From the NCBI GenBank assembly GCA_017640445.1, contig JAEPQQ010000001.1, positions 56,769-120,768 of the forward strand: a DNA stretch of 64,000 nucleotides, written 5' to 3'. This document shows, piece by piece, positions 40,293 to 62,757 of this stretch. A model generated the notes under the pieces. That model saw only the letters and a program-made list of their open reading frames with translations, was not told the origin of the DNA and did not search any database. A program made the translations under genes and the position numbers. The DNA comes from Bacteroidia bacterium. GTDB taxonomy: Bacteria; Bacteroidota; Bacteroidia; NS11-12g; UBA9320. Each line of letters begins with the position of its first letter. Within the stretch, counting starts at the first letter, position 1.

Positions 40293-40733
40293 ATGGATCA
40301 AACAACCAGATGGAAGGGATTTTACGCCTATCATGATGTACAGGATAATGGTATCGAGCACATCACACGAATACCTTTTACCATGAACATTGAGTTTGAC
40401 AATGGGAAAATTACGGGTACAACATGGGATGTGGAGAGCGATGGACTTTTCGATGATCCCATAACGATAAAAGGTTTCATGGTTGATGACCGCACCAGCT
40501 TTATGGTTACCTATCCGTGTTTGTGGTACTGGGATGAAGAGCAGAATGGTTTTGTTAAGGACGAAGAGAATAAAGACTATGAGGTCCATTATTCAGGGGA
40601 ATATAACAACCATAGTAAGTGCTACCAGGGTGATTGGACAATTACGCTGGAAGAGGAACGAGAAGGCAAGTGGCAAACGGATTACAACGAGAAATTTTTA
40701 GAAGGAACCTGGGAAATGGAACGAGTCGAATGA
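40293..40733 (+). CDS. Hypothetical protein
   Basis: A 146-aa ORF. Confidence 0.45.
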   Translation: MDQTTRWKGFYAYHDVQDNGIEHITRIPFTMNIEFDNGKITGTTWDVESDGLFDDPITIKGFMVDDRTSFMVTYPCLWYWDEEQNGFVKDEENKDYEVHYSGEYNNHSKCYQGDWTITLEEEREGKWQTDYNEKFLEGTWEMERVE

Positions 40734-41428: not shown

Positions 41429-43897
41429 TCAAAGTCGATATTTTAACAACAAACGGCCGCTGTAAACGTGTTTGCGTTCAACACCATAAAGGCCTTCAAT
41501 CATGCCTAACCCAAAACTTGTTTGAATGGACAACTTCTGCAGAGGGTGGAACGAAGCTGTTGTAACCCAGTTATACCTTAAATCATGAGAATCATAATAG
41601 TCGAAGAAGATGGAGGATGAAACGTTGACTTTCTTTTCTGATTGCTGGCCAACCTCAATTCGAACACCCCTATAGTTCAGCGTGTCAATTTGTGGTTTAG
41701 ACTGATTTCTGTAAGCGTTTACGGAAGCCCGTAACCCAGGGCTCTTCAGTGCCAGTAACAGGTTGTAGAATTCGTTCTCGACAGGTGCTTCTCCTTGATT
41801 GAAGTCAATTTGGCTTCTCGTGTAGTTGGAGACAACGGATACCCTTGTCTTTTTGACCTTTTTGACATAGATGATACCGGCTGTGGTAACACTCAACTGG
41901 TTGTTTACACGGAATACGGAGTCTGGATGGTTGTTACCTTGCTCATAGGGTGCGTGCTGAACAAACAGGTTAGGCCACTTTTTCAGATTCGTTCTAGCAG
42001 AGATGCCATACCCTTTCATTGTGTTGGTTGTTTGTTGAATGCTTGTGATGTTGTCGGCAAAATGCTTGTAGAAAACAGAAGTCTGTAGTCTGCGTTTTAA
42101 GAATTTTCGATCCAATTGAATCCGATGTTCATCGTAACCATTGCGCATGAATGGGTTGGATAGGTTTATAAAACCAGGGTAGATACGGTGATTGGTTATA
42201 GACATCTTGGATTGAGCATCAATTTGAACCTTGAATTCCAACTTTAAGGCCATTCGATTAAGACGTTGTACGATAACCCCCGGGTGTTTAGTTTCGGATG
42301 AGGGTTCTGGGAGCTTTCGGTTGTCGACATACGCCGAATGCGCCGTGGTAGCCCTGATGTTAAGGTGTTTGCCAAGTTTTCGTCTCACCTCAAGCGTTTG
42401 AACAAAGTTTCGTTTAGGCTCAGTGAGAGTCACAGGATCCCAGATGGATGTGTTAGAAATCGTTAGACTTCCGCGTGACGACATACGTTCATAATACACG
42501 CCCTGAACATTTCTGGTAAATTCTGGATTGGGTTGACCTAATCCAAAGGTGTTAATCCGGTTGTTGAATGTCCTGCCACCAACAAGTTTGAAGTGGTTTT
42601 TACCTTTGGTGAATCCGGCATTCAGACCTTTGACCGGTGTTCCGTTTAACGACAGCTTTGAAAAGAAAGGGTAGTTAATTCCAACCTCAAAGTAATCGAC
42701 ATTGCTCAGGATACCGGCTAACTTCTTACTACCTAGTTTCTGAGCCGCTCTCTGTTTGATAAAATCCGGATTTGCAAACTGTGATTGTAGGTATTCAATA
42801 CGACTTCCGTAGGCAGAGTCCAGATCATTGACCAATCTGTAAACCGAGTCAACCAGTTCATATTTTCTTTTGAGATCTTCATATTGTTCCTTTCGTTTTA
42901 GGTAGGTTTCATATTTGGTTGAGTCGAGTTTCGCTGCCCGTTCCGTGGTGATATGGTTGTAGGGGTTCAGGAGGGAGTCGGACGTTCTTTTTATCGCGTT
43001 TTCTATCAGGTTAATTTGTCGATCCTTACCCTTCTTAATCTGGTCCGCTTTTCCATTTGGATTCAACTCATCCTGAGCATTAGGTACATCCAGGTGCCGG
43101 TTTAGATTCTTTTTGGCTTGAATATCGATTTGATCCAGTTGGCTCTTTTTATGATCCAATTGCAGTTTTATTTGGTTTTTATAGCTTCCAAGTTCAGATT
43201 GCTTTTCTCGTGCTATGTTCTTTTTCTGATAGACTTTCTGGAGCTCATCTCTGGCTTTTTGTTGTAGATTACTCTTAAAGGTCTCGGTATCGAATCGAAC
43301 ACGAAAGGAGTTCGAATTATAAATGGTGTTGTCTTCCGTCGTTACAAAGAAGTCAACAGCAAATGGCAGATTCGCGACTTGAATAGTCGGATTGCCATAA
43401 AATCGGCTATAGGCCTTTTCACTTATGGTAAAGGGATCCTGGTAGTTGGTGACGAACGACTCGGAGACAATTTCTCCAGAGAGGGAGATCCTGGACGAAA
43501 CGATTTGTTTTGTTCTGTCCAGCGATAACCTGAAAAGTCCGTTAAGCGAGTCTCCATGGTTTTTTAGGGAAGATTTTTTAGGCAAGATTTCGTTCAGAGA
43601 AGCACGAAGAAGGGAGTCGCGAAAATCGTTAATCTGGTTTTTTGCAGAGTTTAAACCTGCGTTTGTTCGGTGCCGCAGGGAGTCCTTGTGTCTGTTTACG
43701 GCATACGCTATACTGTCACTCTTTTTAGAAAGAAGTTCATGGGACTTACCGTATTGGTCAATCAGTTGTTCTTTCTGAAGTTCGATATTTTTCAGGGTTT
43801 GTTCCTGGAGACTGTCTTTGTTTACAACCTTGGTATTGATTTGGGCAAACCCAGTAGAAAACAAAAACAGGCAAACCAGGACAATCGCCAGACGCAT
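41429..43897 (-). CDS. Predicted outer-membrane beta-barrel protein with a long N-terminal coiled-coil region. It is the last gene of the toxin operon.
   Basis: The signal MRLAIVLVCLFLFSTGFAQ begins at Met 38 of the listed ORF. About 400 aa of K/E/Q/L-rich heptad-like sequence follows. The C-terminal ~420 aa show an amphipathic beta-strand alternation ending ...RLLLKYRL. The gene lies 116 bp downstream of the RHS gene stop on the same strand. Confidence 0.6.
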   Translation of the reverse strand: MRLAIVLVCLFLFSTGFAQINTKVVNKDSLQEQTLKNIELQKEQLIDQYGKSHELLSKKSDSIAYAVNRHKDSLRHRTNAGLNSAKNQINDFRDSLLRASLNEILPKKSSLKNHGDSLNGLFRLSLDRTKQIVSSRISLSGEIVSESFVTNYQDPFTISEKAYSRFYGNPTIQVANLPFAVDFFVTTEDNTIYNSNSFRVRFDTETFKSNLQQKARDELQKVYQKKNIAREKQSELGSYKNQIKLQLDHKKSQLDQIDIQAKKNLNRHLDVPNAQDELNPNGKADQIKKGKDRQINLIENAIKRTSDSLLNPYNHITTERAAKLDSTKYETYLKRKEQYEDLKRKYELVDSVYRLVNDLDSAYGSRIEYLQSQFANPDFIKQRAAQKLGSKKLAGILSNVDYFEVGINYPFFSKLSLNGTPVKGLNAGFTKGKNHFKLVGGRTFNNRINTFGLGQPNPEFTRNVQGVYYERMSSRGSLTISNTSIWDPVTLTEPKRNFVQTLEVRRKLGKHLNIRATTAHSAYVDNRKLPEPSSETKHPGVIVQRLNRMALKLEFKVQIDAQSKMSITNHRIYPGFINLSNPFMRNGYDEHRIQLDRKFLKRRLQTSVFYKHFADNITSIQQTTNTMKGYGISARTNLKKWPNLFVQHAPYEQGNNHPDSVFRVNNQLSVTTAGIIYVKKVKKTRVSVVSNYTRSQIDFNQGEAPVENEFYNLLLALKSPGLRASVNAYRNQSKPQIDTLNYRGVRIEVGQQSEKKVNVSSSIFFDYYDSHDLRYNWVTTASFHPLQKLSIQTSFGLGMIEGLYGVERKHVYSGRLLLKYRL

Positions 43898-44013
43898 AAT
43901 GGGTACGGTGGTCTTATAAAGCCATTCGGAAAACCTTTTGGAATATCCTATTAGATAGGGGAGATGTTTCGGAGTAAAAGCCGAAACATCTCCCAATAAA
44001 TCAGTCATATGGC

Positions 44014-44772
44014 TTATTTCTTAGGGACTGGTATTGAGTTTATAACATTGGTGTGATATTGACTTGTGGTTTCGATTTTTTGCAACATTCTTGCTTTACC
44101 AGTTCCATCAGACTGAAGGTCGAAACCATAGGTAAGTGACAGGATAGGCACATAAGAATCTCCTACTTGTCTCACTAGAGATAACTCAGCGACCCAATAA
44201 ACAGGACCATCTTGGTGCTTTGGCCTTCCAGGCTGGTCACTAAATGATCGATAGCCAATCTCCAGGTTGTCACCGTATACTGGCACCTTGTTCTTACGGT
44301 CATAACCCGAATAGAAATGTGGAGGGTCATTTGGTACCGGTGGATCTGTGTACTCAAGCTCCCTTAGAACCGGAGTGCCTCGATTATAGTTCAACAACTT
44401 GTACTCGTTATGTGGATAGTTGGTTTTGATGGTTTGGACCCAATTAACATAACCTACGTCGTCTGCAAGCTTGGTGTCTAGAACTATCCCGGTGAAATAT
44501 CCATTAATCGGACTTTTGTGACCATAAAAATCCAGACCCCTAGAAAAGGGCTCAAAGTGTATCACATTTACTTGACCAAGCTCACCCAGCGAATAAGTGG
44601 GTTTGGGATCGTTTAGATTCAGATACTCTCCAATTGGAAGGTTCTTTGCTTCATACTCCTTGTTCCAAGCCATTAAATCCTCAGTTGGTATACCAGTCCA
44701 GATCGATATTTTCGAGAACCAGTCGTTTTCTTCTATTTTCCATTTCCATACTCCATCCAGTAAAACCGAGTC
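44014..44772 (-). other. C-terminal variable (toxin-like) domain of the RHS protein, downstream of the DPSGA core terminus. It includes a LysM-like segment.
   Basis: The sequence after IIDPSGA is DSVLLDGVWKWKIEENDWFSKISIWTGIPTEDLMAWNK...NLPIGEYLNL (LysM-like spacing) followed by ~190 aa with no recognised family. Confidence 0.6.
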
Positions 44773-47700
44773 TGCACCCGAAGGGTCGATAATCCAGATA
44801 GGATTATTAGCGTAACATGAGTAACCGCTCTGGTCATGTTTGACAACTGGGTCGACATTCCACCTTCGGCCTAACCTACTATCGTATTGCCAGAATTGAG
44901 CGGTTAAACTGTTCCCCGAACCATGAATCTCATCATCAGCCTCTTGTCCCTGGAAACCATATTTATAAGTAGACGTAGCATAGCTCCCAGCTTCAAATCC
45001 CCGTTCGTCCATCAGGGAGCCAAACGCATAGTAGTCCTGTGCCTTAATCACATAAGGTATGAAGTAATCAATTGTTCCGTTAGAGGTATAATCAACGCCT
45101 TGCTTTCGGTCTTGAATGGTGACCAGTACATTGCCTAAGTGGTTTGACAATTCATAGGTCTTTAAACCCCGTTCCGTGTAATGAACAACGGTGTCAACTA
45201 CAAATAGTACATTGATTGGATAGGCCGAATAATCTCGAGATGTAAGACGAGAGTCGTCAAGTGTTGCCGTGAATTCTCGTTCTACTAACACCGTGTCAAT
45301 GTGCTGAACACCAATACGCGAGGACCCATAAATGGTGAACTCGTTGATCTTGAGCTGGTCGGTATAGTGACTACCGTTGGATGGATATGCACGCGTATAC
45401 GTAGCCAATACCTTGCCCTCACCATCGCGTATGTAATACTCAATTTGCCAGTGACTTTCATCGAGCAACGTATTGTTGTTGGAAGCATCCTTGGGCTTTA
45501 CAACCTTGTACATTCGGTTGTTGAATACATCATACCCAAACTCGAGATCTGGTTGCGCGTCGTTCGCACCTCGTTTGATTTCCTTGATCTTGCCAGAAGC
45601 CGTCCAAACAATTTCACTAATTGCAGAACTTTCATCGCGTGTTAGATTCCCTAAAACGTCATAACCATAGGTGTTATCTGTGTTGATTTGGGATGGAGTG
45701 CTTGTAAACGATGTACCTGGATCATCTACGTCATTGGTATACCTTGATGTAAGCAGGGGTTGATCATTAACGTGATACAACTTGTTGCTGTGCATGCCTT
45801 CCCAATTCAGGGTTACACTTCCTCCCGGCGAGCTGACTGTAGCCGATTTGCCACGCTTGTCATAATGGTAGATCAGGCTATCCATCTCCACAGAAGGTGT
45901 TAGATGCCCGTTTCTGCGTAACCGCGTAATGTTCCCATTTCCGTCGTATTGGAAATCTTCATAATATAAAGCCTCGCCCGTAGCACTCGTGTTTAACCAG
46001 GCATCCTGGGCCGAATTGATATTTTGAAACACGCGGTGTTTGAATATTCTATTCAGTTGATCGTAACGATATACGTTCCCCATAACATCGGCCTTCAGGC
46101 TTCCGTTTATGTAGTCATTTTCCATGGGAATCGAAGTGGTCATCATAGCAATGTTGCCATTGTATAAAGCATCATAAGCTGAGGCAACATCACTACCCGT
46201 TTTGTCTGGTCCGTAAGCACCACCGTTAATTGGCGTATAATCTTCGTTGAAATAAGAAAGGTCATACGCAAAGGCATCTCTTGCCACCCAACGATTTGGA
46301 TTGGTTGGAATTTGCATGCCGTCCTGGCCAATATCCTCGGTAGAATTGAGTACGGCGCCATTTACGCCTTTGACCCACCCTTGGAGCGTATATGCATAAT
46401 CCATTCCCTGTACATTGAGTTCCCCCAATTCCTGTCGTGCCAGCGGTCCATGGAAATAGTATTCATACCGCGATTCGCTCTCCCACGAATAATCATCTCG
46501 CGACGTTTGCACCTCAACCAGTTGATTGTTTCGATCATATACTAAACGATGTACAAACTGATCCGCTTGATTCTTTTGGTAAATGGTTTTAAGAACATTC
46601 CCACTTAAGAGGTCGAAGGTGTAATCGATGCTGAACAGGTTTCTCTCTAATGGTGCAAGTGTTGGTAAGTCTTGAACATAACGACTCAGGTTCCCCATCG
46701 CATCGTACGAGTAAAACACACCATGGTCGTACGTTGCATCATTGTTGTCGTTAACCTGTTCATAAGTCGAATAGGAAATCCAGTTGCGTAGGTTTTGTTG
46801 ACCACCAAGGTCTGCGAATGCATCATAAATCGGTTGGGAAGCATTGGCTTCGTCAAAATAACTTCGTAGAACTTCTGATTTGTAACTTGGGTTACCAGAA
46901 ACATCAAGCATATTGGTTACGGATGAGTTGGTGGCTGCGAACTCTGAAGTCATTCCTCCGGAGGGTGGGTTCTGAGGGTCAACGATTCCCGATTCAACCG
47001 TTCTTCCTAATTCGTCGTACACTGTGTAAGCGAATTTATTGTCTACAGCCTGGTCTTCGTTTTGACTTAGGATGGGGCGGCCAAGTTCATCGTACCACAT
47101 ATTGCTTTCGCCACCATCCGGTGTTTCTTGAGATACAATTTTCCCAAGACTGTTGTATCTATATTGAGTAGCCAGGTCGTGATAAGTAAGAGGTCGTGTA
47201 GCAAGGTTACCGGAACGGTAAGCTGCCGTTTTCGCAATGCGATCATTTGCCAAGAGCAATCGATCTATGTTACTCAGGCTGGCGTTGTCTACATCAACTC
47301 CCGCAGGAGGCACAGTTTTTACCAACGAACCGCTTCGGTCGTAGTAGTATAACATATGGTGAAGTGTTCGGTCGTTGTAACGAACACGCATTGTTTCCTT
47401 GAGAGAGTCGCTGTTCATGCATACGTTGACATACATACTGTCGAATAACTCGATACGCCTTTTGAGATAGTCGTCATACCGTGTAAGGGCGTTGGTCATG
47501 GCAACTTCGATGTCCTCTTCAAAACAAGGCTCAGGATCTACGATTGGCCGAAAAAAGGGTTTGTTGCATAGACGAGCACAGTTGAGACATGGAACTTCAA
47601 CACCAATATCAATAGTCTGGAAACGTCCCGTTAAACCAATTGTGTCATAGCAGTAGTCTTCAGAGCCGATGGTTACATTAGGACAATTAGCTTTGCTGCC

Positions 47701-50700
47701 CCAATATTTTTTAGGCATGCGATAGACTGCAATGAGTTTAAACATGTCAGGTGGTCGACACCCATGTACCTCCAGTGGTTTTACGTCAAGAAACTCAACG
47801 ATTTCGCCAAAGTTCCACTTTTTAGCGGCTGAGGGAAAGGTAAGATTGAAGGCCATTTCGTATCCATTTTGATCTTCAATGGTCACTACCAGTTCTGGAA
47901 CTTTGACCTCCTTCAGAACGTATTCCAGGTGATTTGAGAATCCATTGTCGTACAAGGTTGGGTTGTTGTAGAAAGAGTTGATGTCAAACGCACCTATTCC
48001 GGTGAAATTCCAATCTGTCGCATACAGATAATTCGGTTGGTCTTTTCGGGTTATTTGATCCAAGAAGGCCCTGAAAGCATCAAGGTACTCCATATCTACC
48101 GTATAGCATTTTGGGCAGGGCTTGGGCTTTGGGTCGAGTGTAACACCCGACGAACATGGACCGGTAAACTGAATAAAAGACTCTAGCGATTTCTTGCTCT
48201 GCGTAGTTCCGTTGTAACATTTGTTGAATCTCGCGTTGAAGAAATCTTCCAAGAGTGCAAACCAGTCTAGCATGTCTTGCACCGCCTGGGTAATAGTTCC
48301 GTTATAGGGGTGATATTGATAGTAGAGTTCACCAAGGTCGCCGGCTAATTGGCGAAGATTAGGCTGCGCGTATCCCGGATCGTCTGGTCGAGGGTTATTA
48401 ACCAGAAAGTCCTTGAAGGCCTGACCAATTGTTTCGCATGGTAGTTTTTCAACACAGGGGTCTTTTTTATGACAGCCACGAAGCTTGTTTAGATAGAAAG
48501 ATAAGCTATAACCAGCATTTGGATTGCATTTCGAGAATTCCAAATTCAACAGGCGTTCTATTTCTTCAAGTAGTGCAAGCCTTGCATCATTGATGGTTCC
48601 AGATCCGGTTTTGGACGCATCCATTATATCATATATGTCACCCATTTGATCAAGTGGGGCCAGATACAAGACCCCTGGTAAATGAGAGCTTATGTTGCCG
48701 AGGTTCTGACCATTTACGATCAGGTCGATGTTATAGGCTTCTCGAACGGCCTTCATGAAGTGAAAAGTGAGTCGGTCACAGGGAATGTTATCAACGCAAG
48801 GTTCTTTTGGATTGCACAGCAAGCTTTTATTCAAAAGCCAGTCCATGTCCTCAGCGTATTCTTCTAAATTGCTGCCGCTTATGTTGTTCCAGTTGGACGT
48901 GCTTGTCCACCCGTTTACGGTATTGCCGCTATTGTCCTTACGTTCACCGGTTCCCCACATCTTTTCACAGGCTTCTAAAAGGGATTGTATGTTGTCAATA
49001 GCAAAGCCTTTCTCGCGAAGCGCAAATGCTTCAAGGGTAATGGGAGGGGTCTGGGGTGGAGTTCCGGCAAGGTAGGAATCATAATCTTCCCTAATTTTCT
49101 TTAATTCTTTACAACCGCAGGTGTCCAGGAAACCGGTTTCCGTTTCAAACTCAATCTCGGGGTCACAGGTGGATTCATCTAAGCGCGTCAGGTCGGCAGG
49201 TGGGTTAACGTCCAATTGTTGCTGAATGTGTAGATTAGATTCGGGTGGGAACTTCATTCCTGGCAGATAGTCGTCAGGTTCGCATGGTGTCGGGTCGTTG
49301 ACAGGGATTCCTTTCCATAACTTACAACAGATTTGCCGCATGTTGTTGAAATTCCAGCTTGAGGGCCAACTCGTATTAAATAGAGAATCGTACAAATCTT
49401 CAGCTGGCAGGCCTCCTGAATGGCCAGAATCAAGGAGGTGCCCGATCTTCATAATGCGTTCGCATTGGCACTTAATCGATTCGACGTCCTGGGATTGGCT
49501 GACCTCGGATGTTTGCTCGCCTGGAATCACAAACCTTTCGTTGGTGGTTGCCCACTCAGTAGTAACTTTCTTACGAGCAAAACCGGCCTTTATGAACGGA
49601 CTTAAACTAGGCACTTTAAGAACAGGAGTTTCAGCAGCATAACGTATTTTCTCTGGCTTGCCCCCGTTGAGGTAGATGTCATCATTTTTCAGGTCAAAGG
49701 GATATGATTCGTCAAAATACGAAACCAATAATTTTCGGGATAGAGTATTCCAGAGTTGTCCGACCGTCGAATCATAACCTGGGTCAATGCAATTTCGGGC
49801 AAAGACTTCATACTCATAATATGTGAGGTTGAATCCAAACGACCGATTCACCCAGGTGGTGAGCATGTCTTGATACAACGGGTCTCCCGCAGCGAGTTTA
49901 ATTGCGGCAGAATCGTAACGCTCGTAGAATTGGTAAACGGGATCGTTTAAGTCCTTACAAACAATACAGTTTTGACACTTCTCTGCTGGGAATACGTGTC
50001 TTTGACTGGCCTTTGCCATTGCGAGGTCATGAGGGTAAGAACATCCACAAGAGTCTAGTATTGAATGAACTACCAGGTCAGGGCAGGCGTGTGGAGAACT
50101 CCATTTTATGGTATCACAAATACAATCATTTGCATCAGGGTCGTCGGTTGCTAAGTAGTCGTGTCCATAAACACCTGGAAATTGAATGAGCAGGTCATCA
50201 CAAATTCCTTCTTCAAACCAGTCATTCCCCAGATGCTTTTTAAATACATCATGTAGGTTGCCGAATGGGTAGGTAGTGGTATTTGTCGAGTTTTTTAGGG
50301 AGCGGGTAATAGAGCCATATGGGTTGTCAATATCACAGCCACTCATGCATAGATTCTGTAAATCCGCCTTGAAAGCATTGAAGTCGCCTTCGGTGAGGTT
50401 CGAAATCTTTGAGCAATCGCTCAACCATTCTATCCACATGTTCACGTTGTCTTCACAATTGCGTTCACAAGAACTCGTGATTTGATCGTTAATGAGATTT
50501 TCATAATCCTCGGCATTACATAAATTCATTATGCTTCCCCAACCTTGTTCAATATCATCAAGTGAAGAAATATCTTGAGCACCAGGCCATCGCGGTACGC
50601 CTAAAAGGCTCTGAGGAATTTCGAGGTCGCAGATGGAGGTTTGGTCACATGAATTGGTATAGTAGTCTTTCAGCCATGCACGTTTTTGGGATAGGTACAT

Positions 50701-53700
50701 TCCGCGAAGGATTGGCCAGAAAACCTCCTCCATGCAGGTGTCTTGCTCGGTCATATTGGTGGTTAGTCCGTTGTCCAAACGATACTGCTCATAAACTTCC
50801 CAAATGGTATTGGTGTGTGTCTGACAATCACCATTTGCATCAGGCAATAGATATTCAAAGGCTGTAAGACTCGTTTGGAAATCCGTTCCATGGGATGCAT
50901 AATAAGGCAGGTTTAGGATTGGATCACGTTCAACGCTGGCGGATATCTCGTAGGTCGTATAGTCAATTGTTTGGCTGTTTATGGTTCCAAGTGTGCCAAG
51001 TCCCAATCCCAGAGGATTGTAGTATCCCTTTTTCTGGGCCTCTCGGGGATCTTCGGTAGCTACGAGCTTTGCATCGTATTCGTAGGTGGTTTCAATCGCC
51101 TGGCATTTTGGATAGTAACAATACTCGGGGTGAATGTAGATCAGAGACTCTGCCCACGAACTTTTCCAGAATTTGACAAAATCAAGAACGGATTTGAGCT
51201 CATGAGGTCGCACAAATTTTTGACCGTCTATGACAACATGAGTTGCACCAGAAACAATATCGGGGTAGTTGTTGAATACCGGAATTAATGACTCGGTTCC
51301 ATCTGGGTCGTAATAGAGGTTGGCCGACGTGTTGTGGTTGAAAGGCACTCTCCAGTTGCGATCTGCGCCGCTGCAGGTACGCCATTGGTCGGATAGAATG
51401 GATTTCTGATTATAACCAGCGTCGCCAATCGTTTTGTCAACGTTTCCATATTCGTCCAAGGTGAAATACTTCATGTATTGACCACCAAGTGTGACATCGG
51501 CCAACATGTTTTGGTAGAGTATATCGCAAGGGGACTTTTCTTCACAAATCTCGTTGCACACTTCAATTAAATCCGAAAGCTCTTCTTTCACCGCGATGTA
51601 ATCTGTATGAGAGTTTGTGTCAATGCTGTTTTGCAAACACCAGTTTCGGATACTATCTCTGGTGGAATTCAACTCACCAATCTCATAATCACAATGTTCA
51701 CAGCTTATTTCACATTCAATAGCCATTTGACTTAGTTCCTCCGAAAGGAATTCCGTAAAGGTTTTAACGCAACCCGACTGTTTTAGGTAGTATTCCCGGT
51801 TCTGTTCGAGTCCATTTCGAGTCAGTCGAAGCGTTTTGACCAATGTATATTCACCTAGGCCAAGTTCAAGTGCAATGGGAGCGGGTTGTGCCTTAAAACG
51901 TATTGGTTTCTGACAATCGGCAGAATCGTCAATCGTACCCACCGTAGCTGTAATTGGGCCGCTAGGTATTTGTTCGTTTCCCCATTGGTCGATTAAGCTG
52001 ATGGTCATTTCATATTCACACGAGTAACAGAAGTTGGTGTCGCAAGCTGCCGACATCTGCAGGGGCTGGAATTCGTAATTGAATTTCCAACTATCTTTCT
52101 GAGTGACAAGAAATGTGTGGTTAATTACTTTTTCTTTTTGGTTTGAAACCGTGTTGTTCCAAAAGACATCGTATCCATCCACACCGGCTATATGACCAAT
52201 AGGTTCCAAACTTGGGGTATTGTCGTCATCACCCGCTAAAGCAGTTGCAATGGTTCGACCAAACAGATCTATATACGTTAGTGAAACCTGTCCATTGACG
52301 TCTTGCGTCATAATCTTTTTGTAGTTGGAATAAGGCCCCACTTCGGCCGCGAAAAGCACGTCTAGTTCTTCCTGCGTAGGAAGACCCTCCCATACTACAG
52401 TTTGCTTACCTTCACTTAACGTGGAATTGTGGTCGTAAGCTGTAAGTTGGTGAGTCTTACCAACAGAACCTGAACGGCTAAGCCGAACTTCAGGATCGTT
52501 TGTGAATTCTTGCTGTGAAAATGCATAACCATCGGCATCTGGTAGAAAGCTGTGTCGTCTTTTTACGTTCTCGGAGTACGAACTTGCTTGCAGATAGGTT
52601 TGAAACTGATCGGAGTAGTAATAATTTGAGCCAGACAAATCACTCATCTTATTCACCAGAATCTCATGAGAAACAGTGCTGCCTAAGTTGTAGTTTAGAT
52701 CAAAGTCAGTATAGCTGTAGTTCTGTCCGCTTGGATTTTGATTCAGTTTTTCGCGGAAATCATAACCTCGCTGATCGAAAACGGGTGATGGCATCACTGA
52801 AACCGCGGGGCGTCCGAGGTGATCGTAGATACTAGAGGCAACTACCGGGAGATCATTTTCGTGGTCCATGGATAGCTGACTACGCGTTCTAAGAAGACCG
52901 TCGGACCATTCAAGGAGGATGTCATATTTAGTTTCCTCTGCGTAGGTCGTAGACCTGTTCCAGTTCCTCGAAACATCGTAGTTCTGAACTTTTAGAGAAG
53001 TTTTTCCCGATGTCTGTCCAAGGCTGACTTGAGATTGGTCCGGTAAGGACCATAAGGTGGCAATTTTTCGACTTGATTGAGTTAGTTTTTCGCTTAGAGC
53101 CCGGACTCGATAAACCAAATACCCTTCTGGAAGAAAGATTGGGATGTCTAAACTCGTCCCGTCTGTAACGCGAATACGTGTGGCACTATGACGAAAATCA
53201 ATGTATATCGCAGACAATGGGGGGAGGTTTGGGTTTCGGTTTTCGGGAGACTGGATGAAGGCAAACTCAACTTCATATGATTCTGCTCCCGGTTTGCTTG
53301 GCCAGGTTAGTCTAATTTCCTGATCCTTTGCATTAACATTTGGCTTATCAGACGAAATGGACATCAAATTATGATCTAATGCATTTTTGGTCATCGCCTC
53401 AATTCGATTGATTTCGATTCGGTTTTCGAGTTGTATTACAGGAAGTTGCGCGTTGGGGTAGGTCAAACCAGAGCCTGTTACCGCGACATTGTTTATGGTA
53501 ACCTTGGACCAAATAACATCTTCTAACGTAATTACCACTCGGTCAACTTCCTTGGCAGTCTGACCTGGGTCATACTTCAATTGTATAGTTTTTAGTATGG
53601 GTGGTTGAGTCACAAACACATTGCCTATCAATTTGTCCGTCTCTATGGTTAGATCAATGTCGAACGTAATGGCAGAGGCAATTAGGTTCAAATTGGACCG

Positions 53701-54009
53701 GTCAATGTTGAGTATGATGCGGTTGTCCACTTTTCGATTGTAAAAACTTGTGGTCCATGCCGGGTTATTATAAATTGAACCTGTTCGGGGAGGAACGTCA
53801 TGTTGATTGTCCACAACCTGAGCGGAGGCGGGAAGCGATGTCACTGTATTAACCCCGGAAGTAAAGGGATATTCCTTTGCCTTGGCGTTCAATCCCGAAA
53901 TCAAGATCATGAACAACATCAGCGCGAGTGTAACCAGATTCGAACGGTGTCTGCCTACCAGTGATGCGTCGACTATTGTCTGTTTATTGGTTTGTCTGTA
54001 AATATTCAT
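44014..54009 (-). CDS. Giant (3331 aa) RHS/YD-repeat protein with an N-terminal signal/anchor, a Cys-rich ~2200-aa N-terminal region, an RHS shell, and a C-terminal polymorphic-toxin-like domain
   Basis: YD repeats from about residue 2220 (YYYDRSGSL, YRYNSLGKI, WYDELGRPI, YTVYDELGRTV ...). The RHS core terminus is QYDSRLGRRWNVDPV...YSCYANNPIWIIDPSGA. A 252-aa C-terminal extension follows. Confidence 0.9.
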   Translation of the reverse strand: MNIYRQTNKQTIVDASLVGRHRSNLVTLALMLFMILISGLNAKAKEYPFTSGVNTVTSLPASAQVVDNQHDVPPRTGSIYNNPAWTTSFYNRKVDNRIILNIDRSNLNLIASAITFDIDLTIETDKLIGNVFVTQPPILKTIQLKYDPGQTAKEVDRVVITLEDVIWSKVTINNVAVTGSGLTYPNAQLPVIQLENRIEINRIEAMTKNALDHNLMSISSDKPNVNAKDQEIRLTWPSKPGAESYEVEFAFIQSPENRNPNLPPLSAIYIDFRHSATRIRVTDGTSLDIPIFLPEGYLVYRVRALSEKLTQSSRKIATLWSLPDQSQVSLGQTSGKTSLKVQNYDVSRNWNRSTTYAEETKYDILLEWSDGLLRTRSQLSMDHENDLPVVASSIYDHLGRPAVSVMPSPVFDQRGYDFREKLNQNPSGQNYSYTDFDLNYNLGSTVSHEILVNKMSDLSGSNYYYSDQFQTYLQASSYSENVKRRHSFLPDADGYAFSQQEFTNDPEVRLSRSGSVGKTHQLTAYDHNSTLSEGKQTVVWEGLPTQEELDVLFAAEVGPYSNYKKIMTQDVNGQVSLTYIDLFGRTIATALAGDDDNTPSLEPIGHIAGVDGYDVFWNNTVSNQKEKVINHTFLVTQKDSWKFNYEFQPLQMSAACDTNFCYSCEYEMTISLIDQWGNEQIPSGPITATVGTIDDSADCQKPIRFKAQPAPIALELGLGEYTLVKTLRLTRNGLEQNREYYLKQSGCVKTFTEFLSEELSQMAIECEISCEHCDYEIGELNSTRDSIRNWCLQNSIDTNSHTDYIAVKEELSDLIEVCNEICEEKSPCDILYQNMLADVTLGGQYMKYFTLDEYGNVDKTIGDAGYNQKSILSDQWRTCSGADRNWRVPFNHNTSANLYYDPDGTESLIPVFNNYPDIVSGATHVVIDGQKFVRPHELKSVLDFVKFWKSSWAESLIYIHPEYCYYPKCQAIETTYEYDAKLVATEDPREAQKKGYYNPLGLGLGTLGTINSQTIDYTTYEISASVERDPILNLPYYASHGTDFQTSLTAFEYLLPDANGDCQTHTNTIWEVYEQYRLDNGLTTNMTEQDTCMEEVFWPILRGMYLSQKRAWLKDYYTNSCDQTSICDLEIPQSLLGVPRWPGAQDISSLDDIEQGWGSIMNLCNAEDYENLINDQITSSCERNCEDNVNMWIEWLSDCSKISNLTEGDFNAFKADLQNLCMSGCDIDNPYGSITRSLKNSTNTTTYPFGNLHDVFKKHLGNDWFEEGICDDLLIQFPGVYGHDYLATDDPDANDCICDTIKWSSPHACPDLVVHSILDSCGCSYPHDLAMAKASQRHVFPAEKCQNCIVCKDLNDPVYQFYERYDSAAIKLAAGDPLYQDMLTTWVNRSFGFNLTYYEYEVFARNCIDPGYDSTVGQLWNTLSRKLLVSYFDESYPFDLKNDDIYLNGGKPEKIRYAAETPVLKVPSLSPFIKAGFARKKVTTEWATTNERFVIPGEQTSEVSQSQDVESIKCQCERIMKIGHLLDSGHSGGLPAEDLYDSLFNTSWPSSWNFNNMRQICCKLWKGIPVNDPTPCEPDDYLPGMKFPPESNLHIQQQLDVNPPADLTRLDESTCDPEIEFETETGFLDTCGCKELKKIREDYDSYLAGTPPQTPPITLEAFALREKGFAIDNIQSLLEACEKMWGTGERKDNSGNTVNGWTSTSNWNNISGSNLEEYAEDMDWLLNKSLLCNPKEPCVDNIPCDRLTFHFMKAVREAYNIDLIVNGQNLGNISSHLPGVLYLAPLDQMGDIYDIMDASKTGSGTINDARLALLEEIERLLNLEFSKCNPNAGYSLSFYLNKLRGCHKKDPCVEKLPCETIGQAFKDFLVNNPRPDDPGYAQPNLRQLAGDLGELYYQYHPYNGTITQAVQDMLDWFALLEDFFNARFNKCYNGTTQSKKSLESFIQFTGPCSSGVTLDPKPKPCPKCYTVDMEYLDAFRAFLDQITRKDQPNYLYATDWNFTGIGAFDINSFYNNPTLYDNGFSNHLEYVLKEVKVPELVVTIEDQNGYEMAFNLTFPSAAKKWNFGEIVEFLDVKPLEVHGCRPPDMFKLIAVYRMPKKYWGSKANCPNVTIGSEDYCYDTIGLTGRFQTIDIGVEVPCLNCARLCNKPFFRPIVDPEPCFEEDIEVAMTNALTRYDDYLKRRIELFDSMYVNVCMNSDSLKETMRVRYNDRTLHHMLYYYDRSGSLVKTVPPAGVDVDNASLSNIDRLLLANDRIAKTAAYRSGNLATRPLTYHDLATQYRYNSLGKIVSQETPDGGESNMWYDELGRPILSQNEDQAVDNKFAYTVYDELGRTVESGIVDPQNPPSGGMTSEFAATNSSVTNMLDVSGNPSYKSEVLRSYFDEANASQPIYDAFADLGGQQNLRNWISYSTYEQVNDNNDATYDHGVFYSYDAMGNLSRYVQDLPTLAPLERNLFSIDYTFDLLSGNVLKTIYQKNQADQFVHRLVYDRNNQLVEVQTSRDDYSWESESRYEYYFHGPLARQELGELNVQGMDYAYTLQGWVKGVNGAVLNSTEDIGQDGMQIPTNPNRWVARDAFAYDLSYFNEDYTPINGGAYGPDKTGSDVASAYDALYNGNIAMMTTSIPMENDYINGSLKADVMGNVYRYDQLNRIFKHRVFQNINSAQDAWLNTSATGEALYYEDFQYDGNGNITRLRRNGHLTPSVEMDSLIYHYDKRGKSATVSSPGGSVTLNWEGMHSNKLYHVNDQPLLTSRYTNDVDDPGTSFTSTPSQINTDNTYGYDVLGNLTRDESSAISEIVWTASGKIKEIKRGANDAQPDLEFGYDVFNNRMYKVVKPKDASNNNTLLDESHWQIEYYIRDGEGKVLATYTRAYPSNGSHYTDQLKINEFTIYGSSRIGVQHIDTVLVEREFTATLDDSRLTSRDYSAYPINVLFVVDTVVHYTERGLKTYELSNHLGNVLVTIQDRKQGVDYTSNGTIDYFIPYVIKAQDYYAFGSLMDERGFEAGSYATSTYKYGFQGQEADDEIHGSGNSLTAQFWQYDSRLGRRWNVDPVVKHDQSGYSCYANNPIWIIDPSGADSVLLDGVWKWKIEENDWFSKISIWTGIPTEDLMAWNKEYEAKNLPIGEYLNLNDPKPTYSLGELGQVNVIHFEPFSRGLDFYGHKSPINGYFTGIVLDTKLADDVGYVNWVQTIKTNYPHNEYKLLNYNRGTPVLRELEYTDPPVPNDPPHFYSGYDRKNKVPVYGDNLEIGYRSFSDQPGRPKHQDGPVYWVAELSLVRQVGDSYVPILSLTYGFDLQSDGTGKARMLQKIETTSQYHTNVINSIPVPKK
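44773..47360 (-). other. RHS/YD-repeat shell region (~860 aa) of the giant protein
   Basis: Many Yx(Y)DxxGRL/NL-type repeats were read from the translation. The boundaries are approximate. Confidence 0.7.
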
Positions 54010-54027: not shown

Positions 54028-54708
54028 TTAAAGTTTGTATAGCTCAATTTGGTCTAATTCAGGTTCGTCCTGAAGCTCCAGCGTCTTGAGATTAATTACG
54101 TTAGCTGGATCTATGAGTACCGGTATTAGTCGTTCGTCTGTGTTGCGCTGAACCATCCGCATTACGGTGCGATGGATTTCCGACTGCCCAAGTGCATTTT
54201 TGCGCACCTGGGTCAAAACCGTCTCTTCCAATTCATCGGTGCTTCTCCGAAACTTGATCGTAAGGGTCACATCATCCAGGTAGTAGGTGTTGATTCGAAA
54301 AGGCCCTTCATTTTTCGACCTTATTATTTGGATGGAATCAGCGTTACTAAACCCAGCCAATTGATGAATCACGCTGTCCGGGATTTGATTTTTGCGTTTG
54401 ATCCGAATTTTGGCTCGGCGAACCGGTAATGGGGTTCTTCTTACCAGAGTTGCGATCTTCGACTCCGCATACACCGTTAGTACGTTGCTCGCCCATGTGT
54501 ACTGCCTGTAGGCATCCCCAAATTCCGTGTATGTTATGCCTTTACAGCTACCTTCTTCCATTTGCAGTGAGTCCGTTAAATCGAGGTTTACGTAGTTGTA
54601 TTGCCGCCAGGTTTTAAGGTAGCAAGCAGGTTTGTTGGGTTTTTCTTGTCCAAAACCTGGGATGTATAAGAATACTAAGAACAGAGATATAGAAACTAGT
54701 TTTTTCAT
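54028..54708 (-). CDS. Small secreted protein (226 aa) sandwiched between the two giant genes
   Basis: Signal MKKLVSISLFLVFLYIPGFGQ. It lies 5 bp after the SpvB-like gene stop and 18 bp before the RHS gene start. Confidence 0.6.
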   Translation of the reverse strand: MKKLVSISLFLVFLYIPGFGQEKPNKPACYLKTWRQYNYVNLDLTDSLQMEEGSCKGITYTEFGDAYRQYTWASNVLTVYAESKIATLVRRTPLPVRRAKIRIKRKNQIPDSVIHQLAGFSNADSIQIIRSKNEGPFRINTYYLDDVTLTIKFRRSTDELEETVLTQVRKNALGQSEIHRTVMRMVQRNTDERLIPVLIDPANVINLKTLELQDEPELDQIELYKL

Positions 54709-54713
54709 GGTTA

Positions 54714-57700
54714 TTAATCTTTAAAGCTTTGGTAATTTTCACTGAGTGTCATGATGCCACGGTCTGTTTCCACCTTATTGCGTTGGAGACGTCCGGCTTC
54801 ATTGTATTCGTAGAATGTGGCAAAATTATTTGGTCCGAGACTGGCCATAAGTCGTTTACGGTCTTTGTCGTACACGTAAGCATTCATAATGGCATCTTCA
54901 GGGAAAATCATGATATCATCCACAAAACAGGGAAGGGCCGGCTCGCCTGTCCGTCTGTTTACCATAAACCGCATTCGCTCGATTTCTTCTCCTGCCAGGA
55001 GCGTAAAGCGATAGGTCATTTTTCTCCATTCATTGACGAAAACATCCGGTGTTTCAGTGGTTAACCCAACCGGTGTAGAAGTGCCCCCTACATCTTTGGT
55101 CAGGTGGAACTCGAATTGGCCTTCAAATCCTTCTTTTACCCAAAGTGAAACAATGTATTCCTGGTCTGTATCTGGTTTGAGGTAGAAGTTGGTTGCGAAG
55201 TGGCTTTTGGTAAGCACATTTGAAGGCGTACCAGGAGAAGGAGCGCCTTCGTCAGACGCATCGTTGTCTAGCTCAACGTCAGTCCAGCCATCACCTAACA
55301 TAAGGGCCTTATTGCCTGTGTGGGCCTGTTGTTCGCTTATGCGATTTACACCACCGATTAGGGCCTCACCTACACGCCAGTGTCTAAATGATTCACAGAA
55401 CTCTTCCTGCCAGTCAGGTGTAACAACCGTATTAAGGCCTAAGTAGTCCTGACAATTCAGTTCCACATAAGCGTCACCAGAATAGTCCTCAAAACTCTCA
55501 AAAAGTACTTCGTTGTAGGCGGCGTTGGATACAGCAGCGACTGGTAACGAACGTTGGTAATCATATAGGATAGAATTGCGTATACCATTGAGGGCACTAA
55601 CGGTTTCCAGATCGTTGCCAAGAAAGTCAGTTTTAGTTACGGAGTCTTTCCAGGTCCAGGGGTTTGTCAAACTTTGAGTTGAGTTCTTTTGCCAGGTAGA
55701 TGTAGATGAATTGTAGGTCCAGTAGGGTTTGAAATCTGATAAGTAACCCGATTCACGAATGTTTGTCGAATTGGGGTCGGTAGATACATCTTGCACCTGA
55801 ACCCGGGTAGAATGAGCGTTCCGCTTTTCATAATACACCACTTCGGATGCGGGTCGCCAATTACCCTTTAACCCGTATACATATGGGTTAATAATATCTC
55901 CCGGATGGAAAGCCGACCACATGGAACACAACGCACAGTTTGGAAGTGGATGCATGGGATTCTCATCGTCTCTTCCACAATCACAGGGCGCAGGTTTGCC
56001 ATAAAAAATCCCGTTACCCGCACCAGAATCCAAACTGTCATAGTGAAAGCCAAAGTCTTGAGTGTAAGAACTCGGAGTGTTGCGATAGCCATAACCATAA
56101 GCTGTTAGGTCACCACTAACCTGCGGAACTGCTGGTAGTGTACACATAGGCTCCGCACAGTATCTGAACTTATAAAGCATTTTGCGTTCGTCATGATAGT
56201 CGATTGTTTTCGCCGAAATAACTTTATCCCAATTTGCGAACTCATGCCACTTCCCGGTTGAGTGGTCTAGGGGGTTGTCCTTGAGTACAATGGTTTCCGC
56301 ACCATATGTCAACAGGTTTTTATGTCCTGAACGGAATACGCGAAGCCGATTAGTAGGTGTGGTGTTATTCCCAAGTTGATCAATTAGTTCAACGGTTCCG
56401 TTATGGGATGATAGCACCCAGTATTTTGTGGTGTTAGCGAAATCGTCGGGCACCAGAATGTCTCCTGGCAGTAAACTACCTGAAGGATCAGTTAGTGAAC
56501 TTCCATTCCACTGAAGCTCCACCGTTAAGCCAAGGTTCTCGTATGCTCCGGCAAGCTGACCGTTCATCCAGTAAGCTGGTTTGTTCAGGGTGTACACGTT
56601 GTCGTTAAATTCGTCCTTGGTCTTTGTCACCATCACTTTACCGGTTACTGCATCCCATGCCATGTTTTTGATAAAGGTGTGATTGCCCTTGTCCATGGTG
56701 TGAATCGAATCCAATATGCCATTTCGGAATACTTGTTTGGTTACAATCATGATCCGGGAATCGTTGGAGTGATATGCATAACTCCCAAATACAGAAGGTA
56801 TTATTGGGATTGGCATAGGGTTAGCAATGTCTACATTGGGTGTAATGGCACCATCCTGATTAATTTCAGTAGTTCGGAACGCAAAAACCGTGGGCACCAT
56901 TTGAACCCCCATTTCTACATCTTCAAAACTTCCATCTTTGCGTAAAACGGTAACGGTGTTGACCAATGCATTTTTAGAGTCCATTTTGTAGTGAAAAGTC
57001 TTCGATGTAATTGCATTTTTACCATTGGGCTTAAACGTTTTTACGGATTTGGGTTTGCCATGCATATCGTTTTGCTCAATCATAAAACCCTGTGAAGCGG
57101 CCGCAAACCCCAACTTGGCTTGTACGTCAAACCCAAACGTAAACTTCTTGCTATCACTTTCGGCTGGTTCTTTTGCAACTCCATCTGTTGAAGGTTCTTT
57201 GGACTTAAAGGTGTCTTTGAGTTGTGGAGAAGTGAAGTTCCGGATGCGCTTGTCGATAGTGGTCATTGAAGATTTGGTAGGAAAGTCATAGGCCGTATAG
57301 AATTCGTATTCGGTTCGGCCGGTTTGGTGCCTCACAATGTCTTGGTGTGGGGCTACATGTTGAACCGTAACCTTACTGTAGCCTACCTGGGCAGCTGGAT
57401 AAAACTCTTCTCCAATAGGTCCTAAATCGTAACCAATCGAAACAGAACCCAATGGCCCACTTCTTTTTCGCCGATATACGTCTTTTAGTGCCTCGTACTG
57501 AATCGGACGAACAAGTGGATTTTCCTCTCCTCCAATAAATGGTTCGTATATGGCAACACCTGAGGTAGATGTACTATCACTTCCTTTGTTGTAGGTGTAC
57601 AGCGTGGTGTAAGAAGCTTCCGATTCGGTACTATCCGACATGTGGTGCCAGCCGTCATAAGTGGTGACTGTTTTTACGCGATGGCCACCACCATATTTTT

Positions 57701-61330: not shown

Positions 61331-62494
61331 TTAATGATTGCGAGGTTGGTCGGTTTGGTCTTCAAACCGGATACGAACAAAAAACGGATCAGATTTGCCA
61401 TTAGTGATCTCAAATACATAGGTAATGTCTGTCTCCAGATCTTGAATGTCTTCAGGTTTCAAGGCGAGGTTGGTTTTTCCTTCGGTCTTGTTTGTTTCGA
61501 TCAACTGACCTATTTCAAACCACTCGTTTGATGTTTCCGAGCGGATACGCGCAGACCAGTCCATTTGTTCATCTGAGTGATACCGGTCCTCAAACACAAA
61601 ACCGAGTTTCCGGTTTACTGGATGACCGTAGGCTTCCATTCCGAGTTTGGGTTTGACAACGTAGAAATACTCTATGGGTTTGGGTTGGTCAATCTCGAAC
61701 TCCCATACGTCGCTGGTGCCAATGTGAACATCACCGATGTAAGCAGATACCTGCCAGGCATAGCGCTGACCTCGACGTAAGTCATTTAATTGGCCAGGGA
61801 ACATCTGAGAAATAGTGGTGAGGTTCGTGCGTTCGTAAACAGCGCGGTTTCTTCGAATTGCATCTTCTGCCGTTTGTCCTTCGAGCATGTTGACCAAGCG
61901 GAATGTATAACGGAGGTTGGAGCTATTTCCGAAGGGCATTGGAGGAATCCAGTTGAAGTTGGGTCGAAGGTCCTCGACCACGGATTCGTCTTCAGGGGTG
62001 TTCAGAAGCAAGGGTGTTATGGTTTCCGAATGTGCTTGACCGCAAGCAGTGTAATTTTGTTCAATCTGAAACGCCCGTTTACAGGCTTCTTCAGTGTCCA
62101 TGCATGTTAGCCGAATACAATAAGTGTATTCCCCGGGTGGAAGGAATGAAGTACTCTTTTCGATAGCCGACAAGTTATGGTTTAGGTACCTGCTCTGAGA
62201 AATGCCAAAGGAGGTTGGATTGTAGCTATTTACACCTGGCTCGATGGAATGGGTCCTACTTTGAAATTGCACCACCAGGCCACTTGATTCATGGCTGAGT
62301 TCGGCTTCGTATCTGACAGTAACGGAATGGGAGCCAGCAAGTATTATGTCAAAGTTTAGAATGTCTTTGCTGGCCAACTGAAAACCGTTGATGGGGTGCG
62401 GATTGATGACTACCTGGCTTTTAACTATCGTGGTACTGGATAAGAAGAAACACAGGAATGCAATACAAGTTAGATTGAGATTGGGTCTGTTCAT
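61331..62494 (-). CDS. Hypothetical secreted protein. It is the first gene of the toxin operon. Translation starts at an internal Met of the listed ORF.
   Basis: Signal MNRPNLNLTCIAFLCFFLSSTTIVKSQ at Met 20. Its stop lies 38 bp upstream of the SpvB-like gene. Confidence 0.5.
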   Translation of the reverse strand: MNRPNLNLTCIAFLCFFLSSTTIVKSQVVINPHPINGFQLASKDILNFDIILAGSHSVTVRYEAELSHESSGLVVQFQSRTHSIEPGVNSYNPTSFGISQSRYLNHNLSAIEKSTSFLPPGEYTYCIRLTCMDTEEACKRAFQIEQNYTACGQAHSETITPLLLNTPEDESVVEDLRPNFNWIPPMPFGNSSNLRYTFRLVNMLEGQTAEDAIRRNRAVYERTNLTTISQMFPGQLNDLRRGQRYAWQVSAYIGDVHIGTSDVWEFEIDQPKPIEYFYVVKPKLGMEAYGHPVNRKLGFVFEDRYHSDEQMDWSARIRSETSNEWFEIGQLIETNKTEGKTNLALKPEDIQDLETDITYVFEITNGKSDPFFVRIRFEDQTDQPRNH

Positions 62495-62757
62495 GCTTAT
62501 TTTTTTAGAAATGAAAAAACAGTAAAGTCTATTATGGTAAGTTGGAAACATGTAACCAAATCACCCCATTTATTTGATAAGATCGAAGGGCCGTTTTGAA
62601 TCTGGTAGAGTTGACTTTGATTCTGGTGTAACAGCAAATTGTGACTAGTTAGAGGCAGCTGTATTATTGTATTTCGCATTATTTATATTTGTGTAAGGGT
62701 GCTTCTGGTAAATCCAGAATGCCCGACTTACACAAACCCGCCCTTAAAAACCTGAAA

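Follow-up and report, generated by a model that had tools for sequence, protein, structure and literature searches.

Among the described systems, the closest functional analogue of the locus considered here is the TpsB group of transporters (FhaC, CdiB, ShlB; type Vb secretion), in which the gene of an outer-membrane barrel is coupled to that of a giant Sec-exported polymorphic toxin. An Rhs core followed by a variable C-terminal toxin is also found in the Tc complexes (TcA, TcB, TcC), in the PAAR-Rhs proteins of type VI secretion (T6SS), and in WapA. In Zhang et al. 2012 (PMC3482391) the Rhs toxins with signal peptides were filed under “T2SS” (type II secretion system) or TcdB/TcaC routes, and a barrel of the kind described below is not mentioned in the parts of that article considered here. 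The crossing of the outer membrane by Sec-exported Rhs toxins that lack signals of the T6SS or of type IX secretion (T9SS) is unexplained in Bacteroidota by the described pathways, and a concrete candidate for this step is the protein family represented by a minus-strand gene at positions 41429–43897 of a 64,000-nucleotide stretch, designated as the window, from a Bacteroidia bacterium (assembly GCA_017640445.1, contig JAEPQQ010000001.1, positions 56,769 to 120,768). The product of this gene (the barrel protein) probably, at moderate confidence, serves a Sec-dependent Rhs toxin system restricted to Bacteroidota as its dedicated component for export across, or anchoring in, the outer membrane. 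Its function is deduced from structure prediction and gene neighbourhood only. A first-pass annotation of the DNA had already suggested a dedicated secretion or surface-display component, and this suggestion is supported by the predicted barrel and by synteny.

The structure of the barrel protein was predicted with AlphaFold2 from an alignment of 8 sequences (predicted local distance difference test score, pLDDT, 63) and again from an alignment of 62 family members (pLDDT 82.6; predicted template modelling score 0.67), and the same topology was obtained from both models, including the one built on the independent shallow alignment. In the predicted order three helices (residues 30–69, 82–104, and 119–135) are followed by four strands (138–202), a helical hairpin, and 22 further strands (400–821), giving a total of 26 strands in one chain and one barrel; the strands have pLDDT of 90–98 in the 62-member model, mostly so over residues 400–822. 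With high model confidence the gene product is thus predicted to be a single-chain 26-strand outer-membrane beta-barrel with helical arms. On the minus strand of the window the N-terminal helical region (residues 19–135; 43493..43843) is predicted to be periplasmic, is poorly conserved, carries DS[LIV] motifs, and has pLDDT of about 41–86 by 10-residue block. It is followed by barrel strands 1–4 with loops L1 and L2 (residues 136–203; 43289..43492; TNYQDPFT and TTEDNTIYNSN), which have block pLDDT of 78–98 and many invariant residues. The helical hairpin between strands 4 and 5 (residues 204–399; 42701..43288) consists of two arms (204–268 and 326–398; pLDDT 85–94) and a low-confidence tip (about 265–325), and it would project by about 10 nm, which is the length of a 65-residue helix. 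The remaining strands 5–26 with the C-terminal beta-signal-like strand (residues 400–822; 41432..42700) are supported by AlphaFold2, Foldseek, strand alternation, and loop conservation.

The general features of outer-membrane barrels were found in this protein, namely, a Sec signal peptide, an even predicted strand count, an asymmetry of strand connections in which turns of 2–5 residues alternate with loops of 4–23 residues, and a beta-signal. Hydrophobic alternation within the strands exceeds that of shuffled sequences (z = 3.2; the observed value was reached in 1 of 2000 shuffles). This per-strand test was used in place of a period-2 test across the whole C-terminal half, which cannot be informative when the strands differ in phase. 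The last strand is hydrophobic at positions −1, −3, −5, and −7 (L, Y, L, L) and ends in ...GRLLLKYRL, with the family consensus YSGRxLLxYxL. The alternating C-terminal hydrophobicity and the terminal beta-strand reported in the first-pass annotation were thus reproduced, and a soluble C-terminal region with no barrel topology, which had been named there as the refuting outcome, is contradicted by the high-confidence AlphaFold2 barrel, by Foldseek, and by the strand alternation. The sequence strings quoted there are all present (IDIQAKKNLNRHLDV at residues 257–271, LKRKYELVDSVYRL at residues 342–355, and RLLLKYRL at residues 815–822).

The helical regions required a more careful description. 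About 400 residues of continuous heptad-like sequence had been claimed, and helical regions were indeed found (about 23–135 and 204–399), but they are not continuous, a highly conserved four-strand barrel segment (136–203) lying between them. The coiled-coil label holds insofar as the family profile, when searched against PDB, retrieved coiled-coil proteins over the helical region only (the best match was a chemoreceptor hairpin, E = 6e-4); however, the helices are amphipathic with hydrophobic periodicity peaking at 3.6 rather than at the strict heptad value of 3.5 (z = 4.6 for 3.6-residue periodicity in the N-terminal helical region), and for this reason “amphipathic helices forming long hairpin” is a safer description than “canonical heptad coiled coil.” Since the hairpin is preceded by an even count of strands and lies on the same side of the barrel as the tight turns, the predicted topology places it and the N-terminal helices in the periplasm. 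A separate observation in these regions is the DS[L/I/V] tripeptide, which occurs nine times (residues 28, 61, 72, 94, 116, 307, 325, 350, and 360; window about 42815–43816) against 2.0 expected (1 of 5000 shuffles) and is enriched in 59 of the 62 family members (9.3 observed and 3.5 expected). Some of the copies stay invariant and anchor helices that otherwise vary; judging from the sequences, their part could be to cap helices or to act as a binding motif used repeatedly.

Conservation across the 62-member alignment is distributed unevenly. The helical regions are least conserved (0.7–1.1 bits, the N-terminal region being lowest at 0.68 bits), whereas conservation is highest in the predicted outer loops L2, L7, L9, and L11 (2.5–3.0 bits, L2 having 2.73) in comparison with 1.7 bits for the strands; loops L1 and L3 have about 2.2 bits. 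The loop motifs of the family are TNYQDPF, TTEDNxxYNSN, NPFxRxxxxE, PYEQGNNHPD, and KPxxDxLN, and within strands 5–26 of the barrel protein itself the conserved loops read NPFMRNGYDE (581–590), PYEQGNNHPDS (650–660), and KPQIDTLNY (734–742). Ordinary porins have the opposite pattern. Such unusual conservation of loops predicted to lie outside may point to docking of a conserved partner, or to a gate, on the outer face.

Neither Pfam nor NCBIfam scans of the barrel protein and 35 family members assigned a family, the scattered coiled-coil-type matches being each found in one member, and no relative of the barrel part was found in PDB by sequence, either with the protein itself (phmmer) or with the family profile. 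All homologues that bear a name in their source database are called “hypothetical protein.” The first homologue search gave 8 close relatives among 5.8 billion proteins, and a word-indexed search with a 35-sequence alignment added nothing beyond those eight matches. The wider family was revealed by an exhaustive profile search of representatives, in which 602 clusters were obtained at E ≤ 1e-3; with the limit tightened to E ≤ 1e-10 there were at least 280, almost entirely of Bacteroidota, and with E ≤ 1e-30 there were 73. The genome matches belong to Bacteroidota (Chitinophagaceae, Flavobacteriales, Crocinitomicaceae, and unclassified Bacteroidia), with the sole exception of a 5-kb contig binned as Bdellovibrio. 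In Foldseek searches against PDB all 50 matches listed per search were outer-membrane barrels, apart from three model entries (OmpC, OmpF, and BtuB), and the likeness is generic (template modelling score, TM, not above 0.41; 6–12% identity). Among the matches listed, MtrB (6r2q_B) had the highest TM-score (TMq 0.33–0.36), and with the 62-member model the lowest E-value among those listed belonged to Deinococcus SlpA (7zgx_A and 8ae1_A; TM about 0.2). Taken with the models, the barrel protein founds an unannotated family with an unusual predicted design of a split barrel and a helical hairpin.

The second line of evidence is the gene neighbourhood. In the window five genes follow one another on the minus strand, and the barrel gene closes this series, which includes, from its head, the genes of a 406-aa secreted protein (61331..62551), a 2192-aa secreted giant protein (54714..61292), a 226-aa secreted protein (54028..54708), and a 3331-aa Rhs/YD-repeat polymorphic toxin, the putative cargo (44014..54009). 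For comparison 39 loci around family members (handles beginning with L) were collected, in part by a search with a 16-sequence alignment, the operon proteins of the window were mapped onto them, and all open reading frames (ORFs) of the loci were clustered; 27 loci were informative after duplicates and contigs too short to judge had been dropped. In 23 of these 27 loci the barrel gene adjoins homologues of the 406-aa and 2192-aa proteins and/or an Rhs gene or cassette, and in 2 more its immediate neighbour belongs to the tyrosine-recombinase family that is found with orphan Rhs cassettes in other loci, which brings the number to 25/27. The 406-aa family is the most constant neighbour (20 loci), followed by the 2192-aa family (16 loci) and by Rhs genes or cassettes (9 loci). 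A lack of synteny with toxin genes, the other refuting outcome named in advance, was therefore not observed.

The linkage is kept among barrel members that are only about 25% identical, and it occurs in a cultured organism, Niastella caeni (L040; GCA_004834005.1, contig STFF01000004.1), where an 868-aa protein, whose gene opens a co-directional run and is located two genes upstream of FAM09_17260, matches the family profile (E = 5.6e-22). Three arrangements were distinguished: the barrel gene is divergent from the operon head (e.g., L002, L004, L007, L021–L029, and L037), heads the operon in the same direction (L019, L020, L030, L038, and Niastella caeni L040), or closes it behind the Rhs gene (the window, L011, L015, L016, L018, and L036). 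Because the linkage survives such rearrangement, it speaks for a functional tie and not for an inherited gene order. The canonical cluster consists of the barrel gene, a gene of about 370–400 aa, an optional Skp/OmpH gene, and genes of about 135–200 aa, about 2200 aa, and about 220–265 aa with an Rhs toxin of about 3000 aa; Niastella caeni and Pedobacter sp. ASV28 both have this layout in full. The Skp/OmpH family (about 170 aa) lies inside the operon in 8 barrel-anchored loci, where it separates the 406-like gene from the 2192-like one (L002 7886–8395, L021 7820–8308, L029 7250–7768, and others), and the three members tested all scored 54–74 bits against Pfam OmpH (Skp), for which the cut-off is 32.4. 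It is usually followed by a protein of about 190 aa of no assigned family, and a further OmpH gene has the same operon position in Aquimarina (L042 9307–9819). The window and its nearest syntenic relative, L004, are without the Skp gene and the small gene. The C-terminal tips of the Rhs proteins vary among the relatives (PT-HINT, Tox-HNH-HHH, or no assigned type) while the barrel family is kept; being retained independently of toxin type, it is, as far as sequence comparison goes, not toxin-specific.

Signal peptides were read from the sequences of 5/5 cluster proteins in the window. Family-library scans found no TPS (two-partner secretion) domain and no type V or type VI secretion markers in these proteins, and no T9SS sorting domain (Por_Secre_tail or type B) was found in the 406-, 2192-, 226-, and 3331-aa proteins. 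Giant proteins that are Sec-exported without a T9SS, TPS, or T6SS marker would need an outer-membrane route or anchor, and the barrel protein is the only predicted integral outer-membrane protein of the cluster. A more specific reading, which can be offered as a tentative possibility, is that the barrel acts as the translocon of a Sec-dependent two-step pathway of Rhs secretion or display, to which the 406-aa, 2192-aa, and 226-aa proteins, the small protein, and, where present, Skp also belong. In the mechanism proposed for the export or anchoring role as a whole, all cluster proteins would cross the inner membrane via Sec, and the barrel protein would then be inserted into the outer membrane by the beta-barrel assembly machinery, as the beta-signal-like C-terminus suggests, to form the predicted monomeric 26-strand barrel. 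The N-terminal helices and the hairpin of about 10 nm after strand 4 would hang in the periplasm, as judged by strand parity and turn lengths, and these arms may receive the giant clients, i.e., the 2192-aa protein and/or the 3331-aa Rhs toxin, with the help of the operon-encoded Skp/OmpH chaperone in many relatives. The wide barrel would either thread the clients to the surface or hold a segment of them or a small partner, the conserved outer loops probably serving as a docking or gating surface, and in the end the Rhs toxin complex would be displayed on the surface or released.

Some observations weigh against a dedicated export or anchoring role. The orientation of the hairpin, periplasmic or surface, depends on topology rules alone; the two closest homologues outside the genome of the window (L001/L009 and L003; 54–55% identity) have no toxin operon in the available sequence, which includes full flanks for L001/L009 and only 1.2 kb upstream for L003; an Aquimarina locus with a 2192-like gene and Skp has no barrel gene nearby; and in Pedobacter the gene at the equivalent position fails to match the barrel family profile. 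The homologues without the operon may be orphan copies or copies serving a cluster elsewhere in the genome. They are also, together with the Foldseek E-value of Deinococcus SlpA, which has a coiled coil and a large barrel, the grounds on which the protein could be taken for a general envelope protein, either a porin or a tether of OmpM/SlpA type, that merely lies near mobile toxin islands. This is improbable, as the same four or five families are linked to the barrel gene in 23–25 of 27 loci despite rearrangement and identity of about 25%, no SLH, OmpA, or other peptidoglycan-binding domain was detected by Pfam and NCBIfam in the protein and its 35 relatives, and the rarity of the family in the first homologue search is ill-suited to a housekeeping function. 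A better alternative, although still rather unlikely, is that the barrel is an anchor or sheath and not a conduit: its lumen would permanently hold a small partner, whether the N-terminal domain of one of the giants, the 226-aa protein, or the 406-aa protein, in the way that MtrB encloses MtrA and LptD encloses LptE, and so rivet the toxin complex to the membrane, while the giants would reach the surface otherwise. The constancy of the 406-aa neighbour, the outer loops that could clamp a partner, and the TM-score of MtrB, itself a 26-strand sheath (PMC7198977), all agree with this arrangement; against it, the TM-scores are low and the likeness generic, and the cluster, in which the T9SS sorting domain was not found, shows no other path by which the giants could cross the outer membrane.

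The position of the gene directly after the Rhs toxin is the usual one of immunity genes, and the interval from the Rhs stop codon to the barrel gene (window 43898–44013) is free of ORFs, so that there is no candidate immunity gene beside the toxin tip. A role in immunity or self-protection has nevertheless the slimmest chance of all the readings considered: in most relatives the barrel gene is at the operon head or divergent, far from the toxin tip, those of the tail position in L011, L015, and L018 have 1.2–4 kb of other genes before it, the barrel family stays conserved across loci whose toxin domains differ, and an outer-membrane barrel of 800 aa is unlike any known immunity protein. The immunity-protein reading was rejected on gene position and conservation pattern. 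Hardly more credible is an exit duct of TolC type or a transporter of TpsB type that has diverged beyond recognition. Periplasmic helices joined to a barrel are reminiscent of TolC, and the pairing of such a gene with that of a giant toxin is reminiscent of TpsB/CdiB, but no OEP, POTRA, ShlB, or Omp85 match was found, the 26 strands are predicted in one chain and not as 3 × 4 or 16, the cluster has no inner-membrane ATP-binding cassette or membrane fusion protein partner, and the cargo is marked by a Sec signal and by Rhs repeats, without the TPS domain.

The start of the barrel gene differs from the public annotation. The ORF occupies 41429..44008 of the minus strand and encodes 859 aa when counted from the first ATG, as in the NCBI entry JJ975_00540, which uses the upstream ATG (window 43898–44008). 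A start at Met38 (43897), giving a precursor of 822 aa, is more likely on sequence grounds, because a canonical signal peptide with a conserved Gln at +1 opens there and because the 37 upstream codons are unconserved and hold an RNA hairpin. The signal peptide, which had been claimed in the first-pass annotation and was found, reads MRLAIVLVCLFLFSTGFA|Q (Sec/signal peptidase I, residues 1–18; 43844..43897, minus strand); the Gln at +1 past the cleavage site is invariant in the alignment of the eight closest family members and agrees with the Bacteroidetes Q-rule (PMC5837995). The 822 aa earlier ascribed to the mature protein are accordingly those of the precursor, and the mature protein has about 804 aa. 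The RNA hairpin (43959..43994, minus strand), located between the Rhs stop codon and Met38 and inside the NCBI-annotated ORF of 859 aa, is a perfect 14-bp stem with an 8-nt loop and the arms GGGAGAUGUUUCGG...CCGAAACAUCUCCC. Its fold z is −4.4 and none of 200 shuffles was equally stable; no second full copy was present in the window and no U-tract follows it. It could be a terminator, an attenuator, or a processing site that sets the barrel-to-toxin stoichiometry.

Concerning the other proteins of the operon, the Rhs toxin was identified by its family matches, i.e., Rhs_assc_core at residues 2993–3078 (E = 2e-7), RHS_repeat at 24.3 bits, over the Pfam cut-off, and a weak match to DUF6443. Its stop codon at 44014 is directly upstream of the barrel ORF, and the earlier statement that the barrel gene lies on the same strand directly after the toxin gene was confirmed. 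No Pfam toxin family was found in its C-terminal region of about 250 residues. A side observation in the same protein is a stretch of about 1500 cysteine-rich residues upstream of the repeats (about 600–2100), which has no family match and is unusually long for a module of an Rhs toxin. The 2192-aa protein is the core partner of the cluster by its translation, homologues, and adjacency. The label of SpvB and Tc previously given to it was not firmly upheld, since the SpvB match is sub-threshold (E = 0.25, residues 60–114), while the expected N-terminal position speaks in its favour, so that the protein is described as faintly SpvB/DUF6531-like; its C-terminus ends in a YD-like repeat (FYEYNEAGRL). 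At least 180 homologues of this protein were found, unnamed or hypothetical apart from repeat-domain labels, and the family is present in cultured Niastella, Mucilaginibacter, Pedobacter, Longitalea, Flavivirga, and Aquimarina. Neither this protein nor the 3331-aa toxin gave a meaningful match when searched by sequence against PDB. The 226-aa protein, recognized by its signal peptide and by genes at the same position in relatives, has 30% identity to the corresponding gene of L004, and genes of 222–266 aa occupy this position in L004, L007, L037, L038, L040, and L041. The 406-aa protein, encoded by the first gene of the cluster, has a faint DUF928/fn3-like match. A search of the window for cluster genes known from relatives, namely, Skp, recombinase, orphan Rhs cassettes, and members of the 190-aa family, was negative for each of them.

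The next gene downstream of the barrel gene (40634–41389, plus strand) is convergent. It belongs to a region of about 35 small ORFs (about 120–390 aa) on the plus strand at about 19600–41400 of the window, which converge on the toxin operon; of the ten nearest to it, two match Pfam (GNAT acetyltransferase and SRPBCC/Polyketide_cyc2). In several relatives a tyrosine recombinase of about 350 aa (Phage_integrase) is found immediately beside the barrel gene (L007/L008 12.6–17.2 kb, L013 76–1209, L014 169–1209, L016 0.3–6.5 kb, L017 2126–3187, and L038 8906–9943), and in L007/L008 and L016 it is joined by short orphan ORFs that consist of an Rhs core and a C-terminal tip, which from the sequences looks like recombinase-driven swapping of toxin tips. 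The barrel genes of L001/L009 and L003 share a convergent neighbour of about 305–316 aa (Por_Secre_tail by Pfam in L003) and two-component regulators. In L023 (10022–12360), a 1.3 Mb contig of a metagenome-assembled genome, the barrel gene is broken into three overlapping ORFs and is either a pseudogene or the result of long-read assembly frameshift errors.

The barrel family is thus tied to a cluster of five to seven genes with an operon-encoded Skp in many genomes, and the presence of the 2192-aa family and of the cluster in cultured isolates makes the export or anchoring hypothesis directly testable. If it is true, a new outer-membrane route for export or display of polymorphic toxins would be added, and several large families now labelled “hypothetical” would receive functions. 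If the barrel is indeed the translocon, it would represent a machine of a new type for protein export across the outer membrane, with no relation to the type V secretion system, the T6SS, and the T9SS.

In comparison with the known systems, the Rhs cluster and the barrel family appear undescribed: in the searchable full-text literature, which does not include subscription-only papers, no Tc or Rhs system was found to contain the 406-aa and 226-aa families, a homologue of Skp, or a barrel of the outer membrane. This agrees with the earlier statement that the barrel protein is not part of known Tc or Rhs systems, as no family match to Tc, Rhs, TPS, T9SS, or TolC components was obtained. The second giant protein with its faint SpvB-like N-terminus recalls the pairing of TcB and TcC; however, TcA is missing (no TcA-type domains were found by family scans of the window operon proteins), T6SS genes are absent, and the Sec signal peptides present here are not found on Tc components, so that the cluster was not assigned to this class. 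TolC was likewise set apart, since no OEP match was found and a single-chain 26-strand prediction differs from a trimeric 12-strand barrel. Within the same phylum, PorP/SprF with SprB of the T9SS is similar in having a barrel gene beside the gene of a giant surface protein, which the barrel is thought to attach, but the barrel protein has no PorP_SprF match, is far larger, and has helical arms, and its cargo has no T9SS C-terminal sorting domain.

Long periplasmic helices combined with a large beta-barrel are shared with OmpM/SlpA (7zgx/8ae1). The latter proteins have SLH and one N-terminal trimeric stalk and are surrounded by envelope genes, whereas the barrel protein has no SLH, its N-terminal helices are accompanied by an inserted hairpin, and its gene lies in a toxin cluster; it was therefore not classified as a tether. 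MtrB (of MtrCAB; 6r2q) and LptD (plugged by LptE) have the same predicted strand number and are wide barrels that enclose a partner, but identity is 8%, TM is no higher than 0.43, the cluster has no cytochrome or lipopolysaccharide-transport partners, and neither of the two barrels is split by a hairpin. The comparison with TpsB remains the closest in function, despite the fact that the TpsB transporters are 16-strand Omp85 barrels with two POTRA domains and were on this account not joined with a protein of 26 predicted strands and helical arms, and that their cargo consists of a TPS domain and a beta-helix instead of an Rhs/YD shell protein with three or four conserved partners. In both systems there are periplasmic modules, predicted ones in the present case, that could receive cargo, and in both the toxin tips are variable while the transporter, or in the present case the candidate for this role, is conserved.

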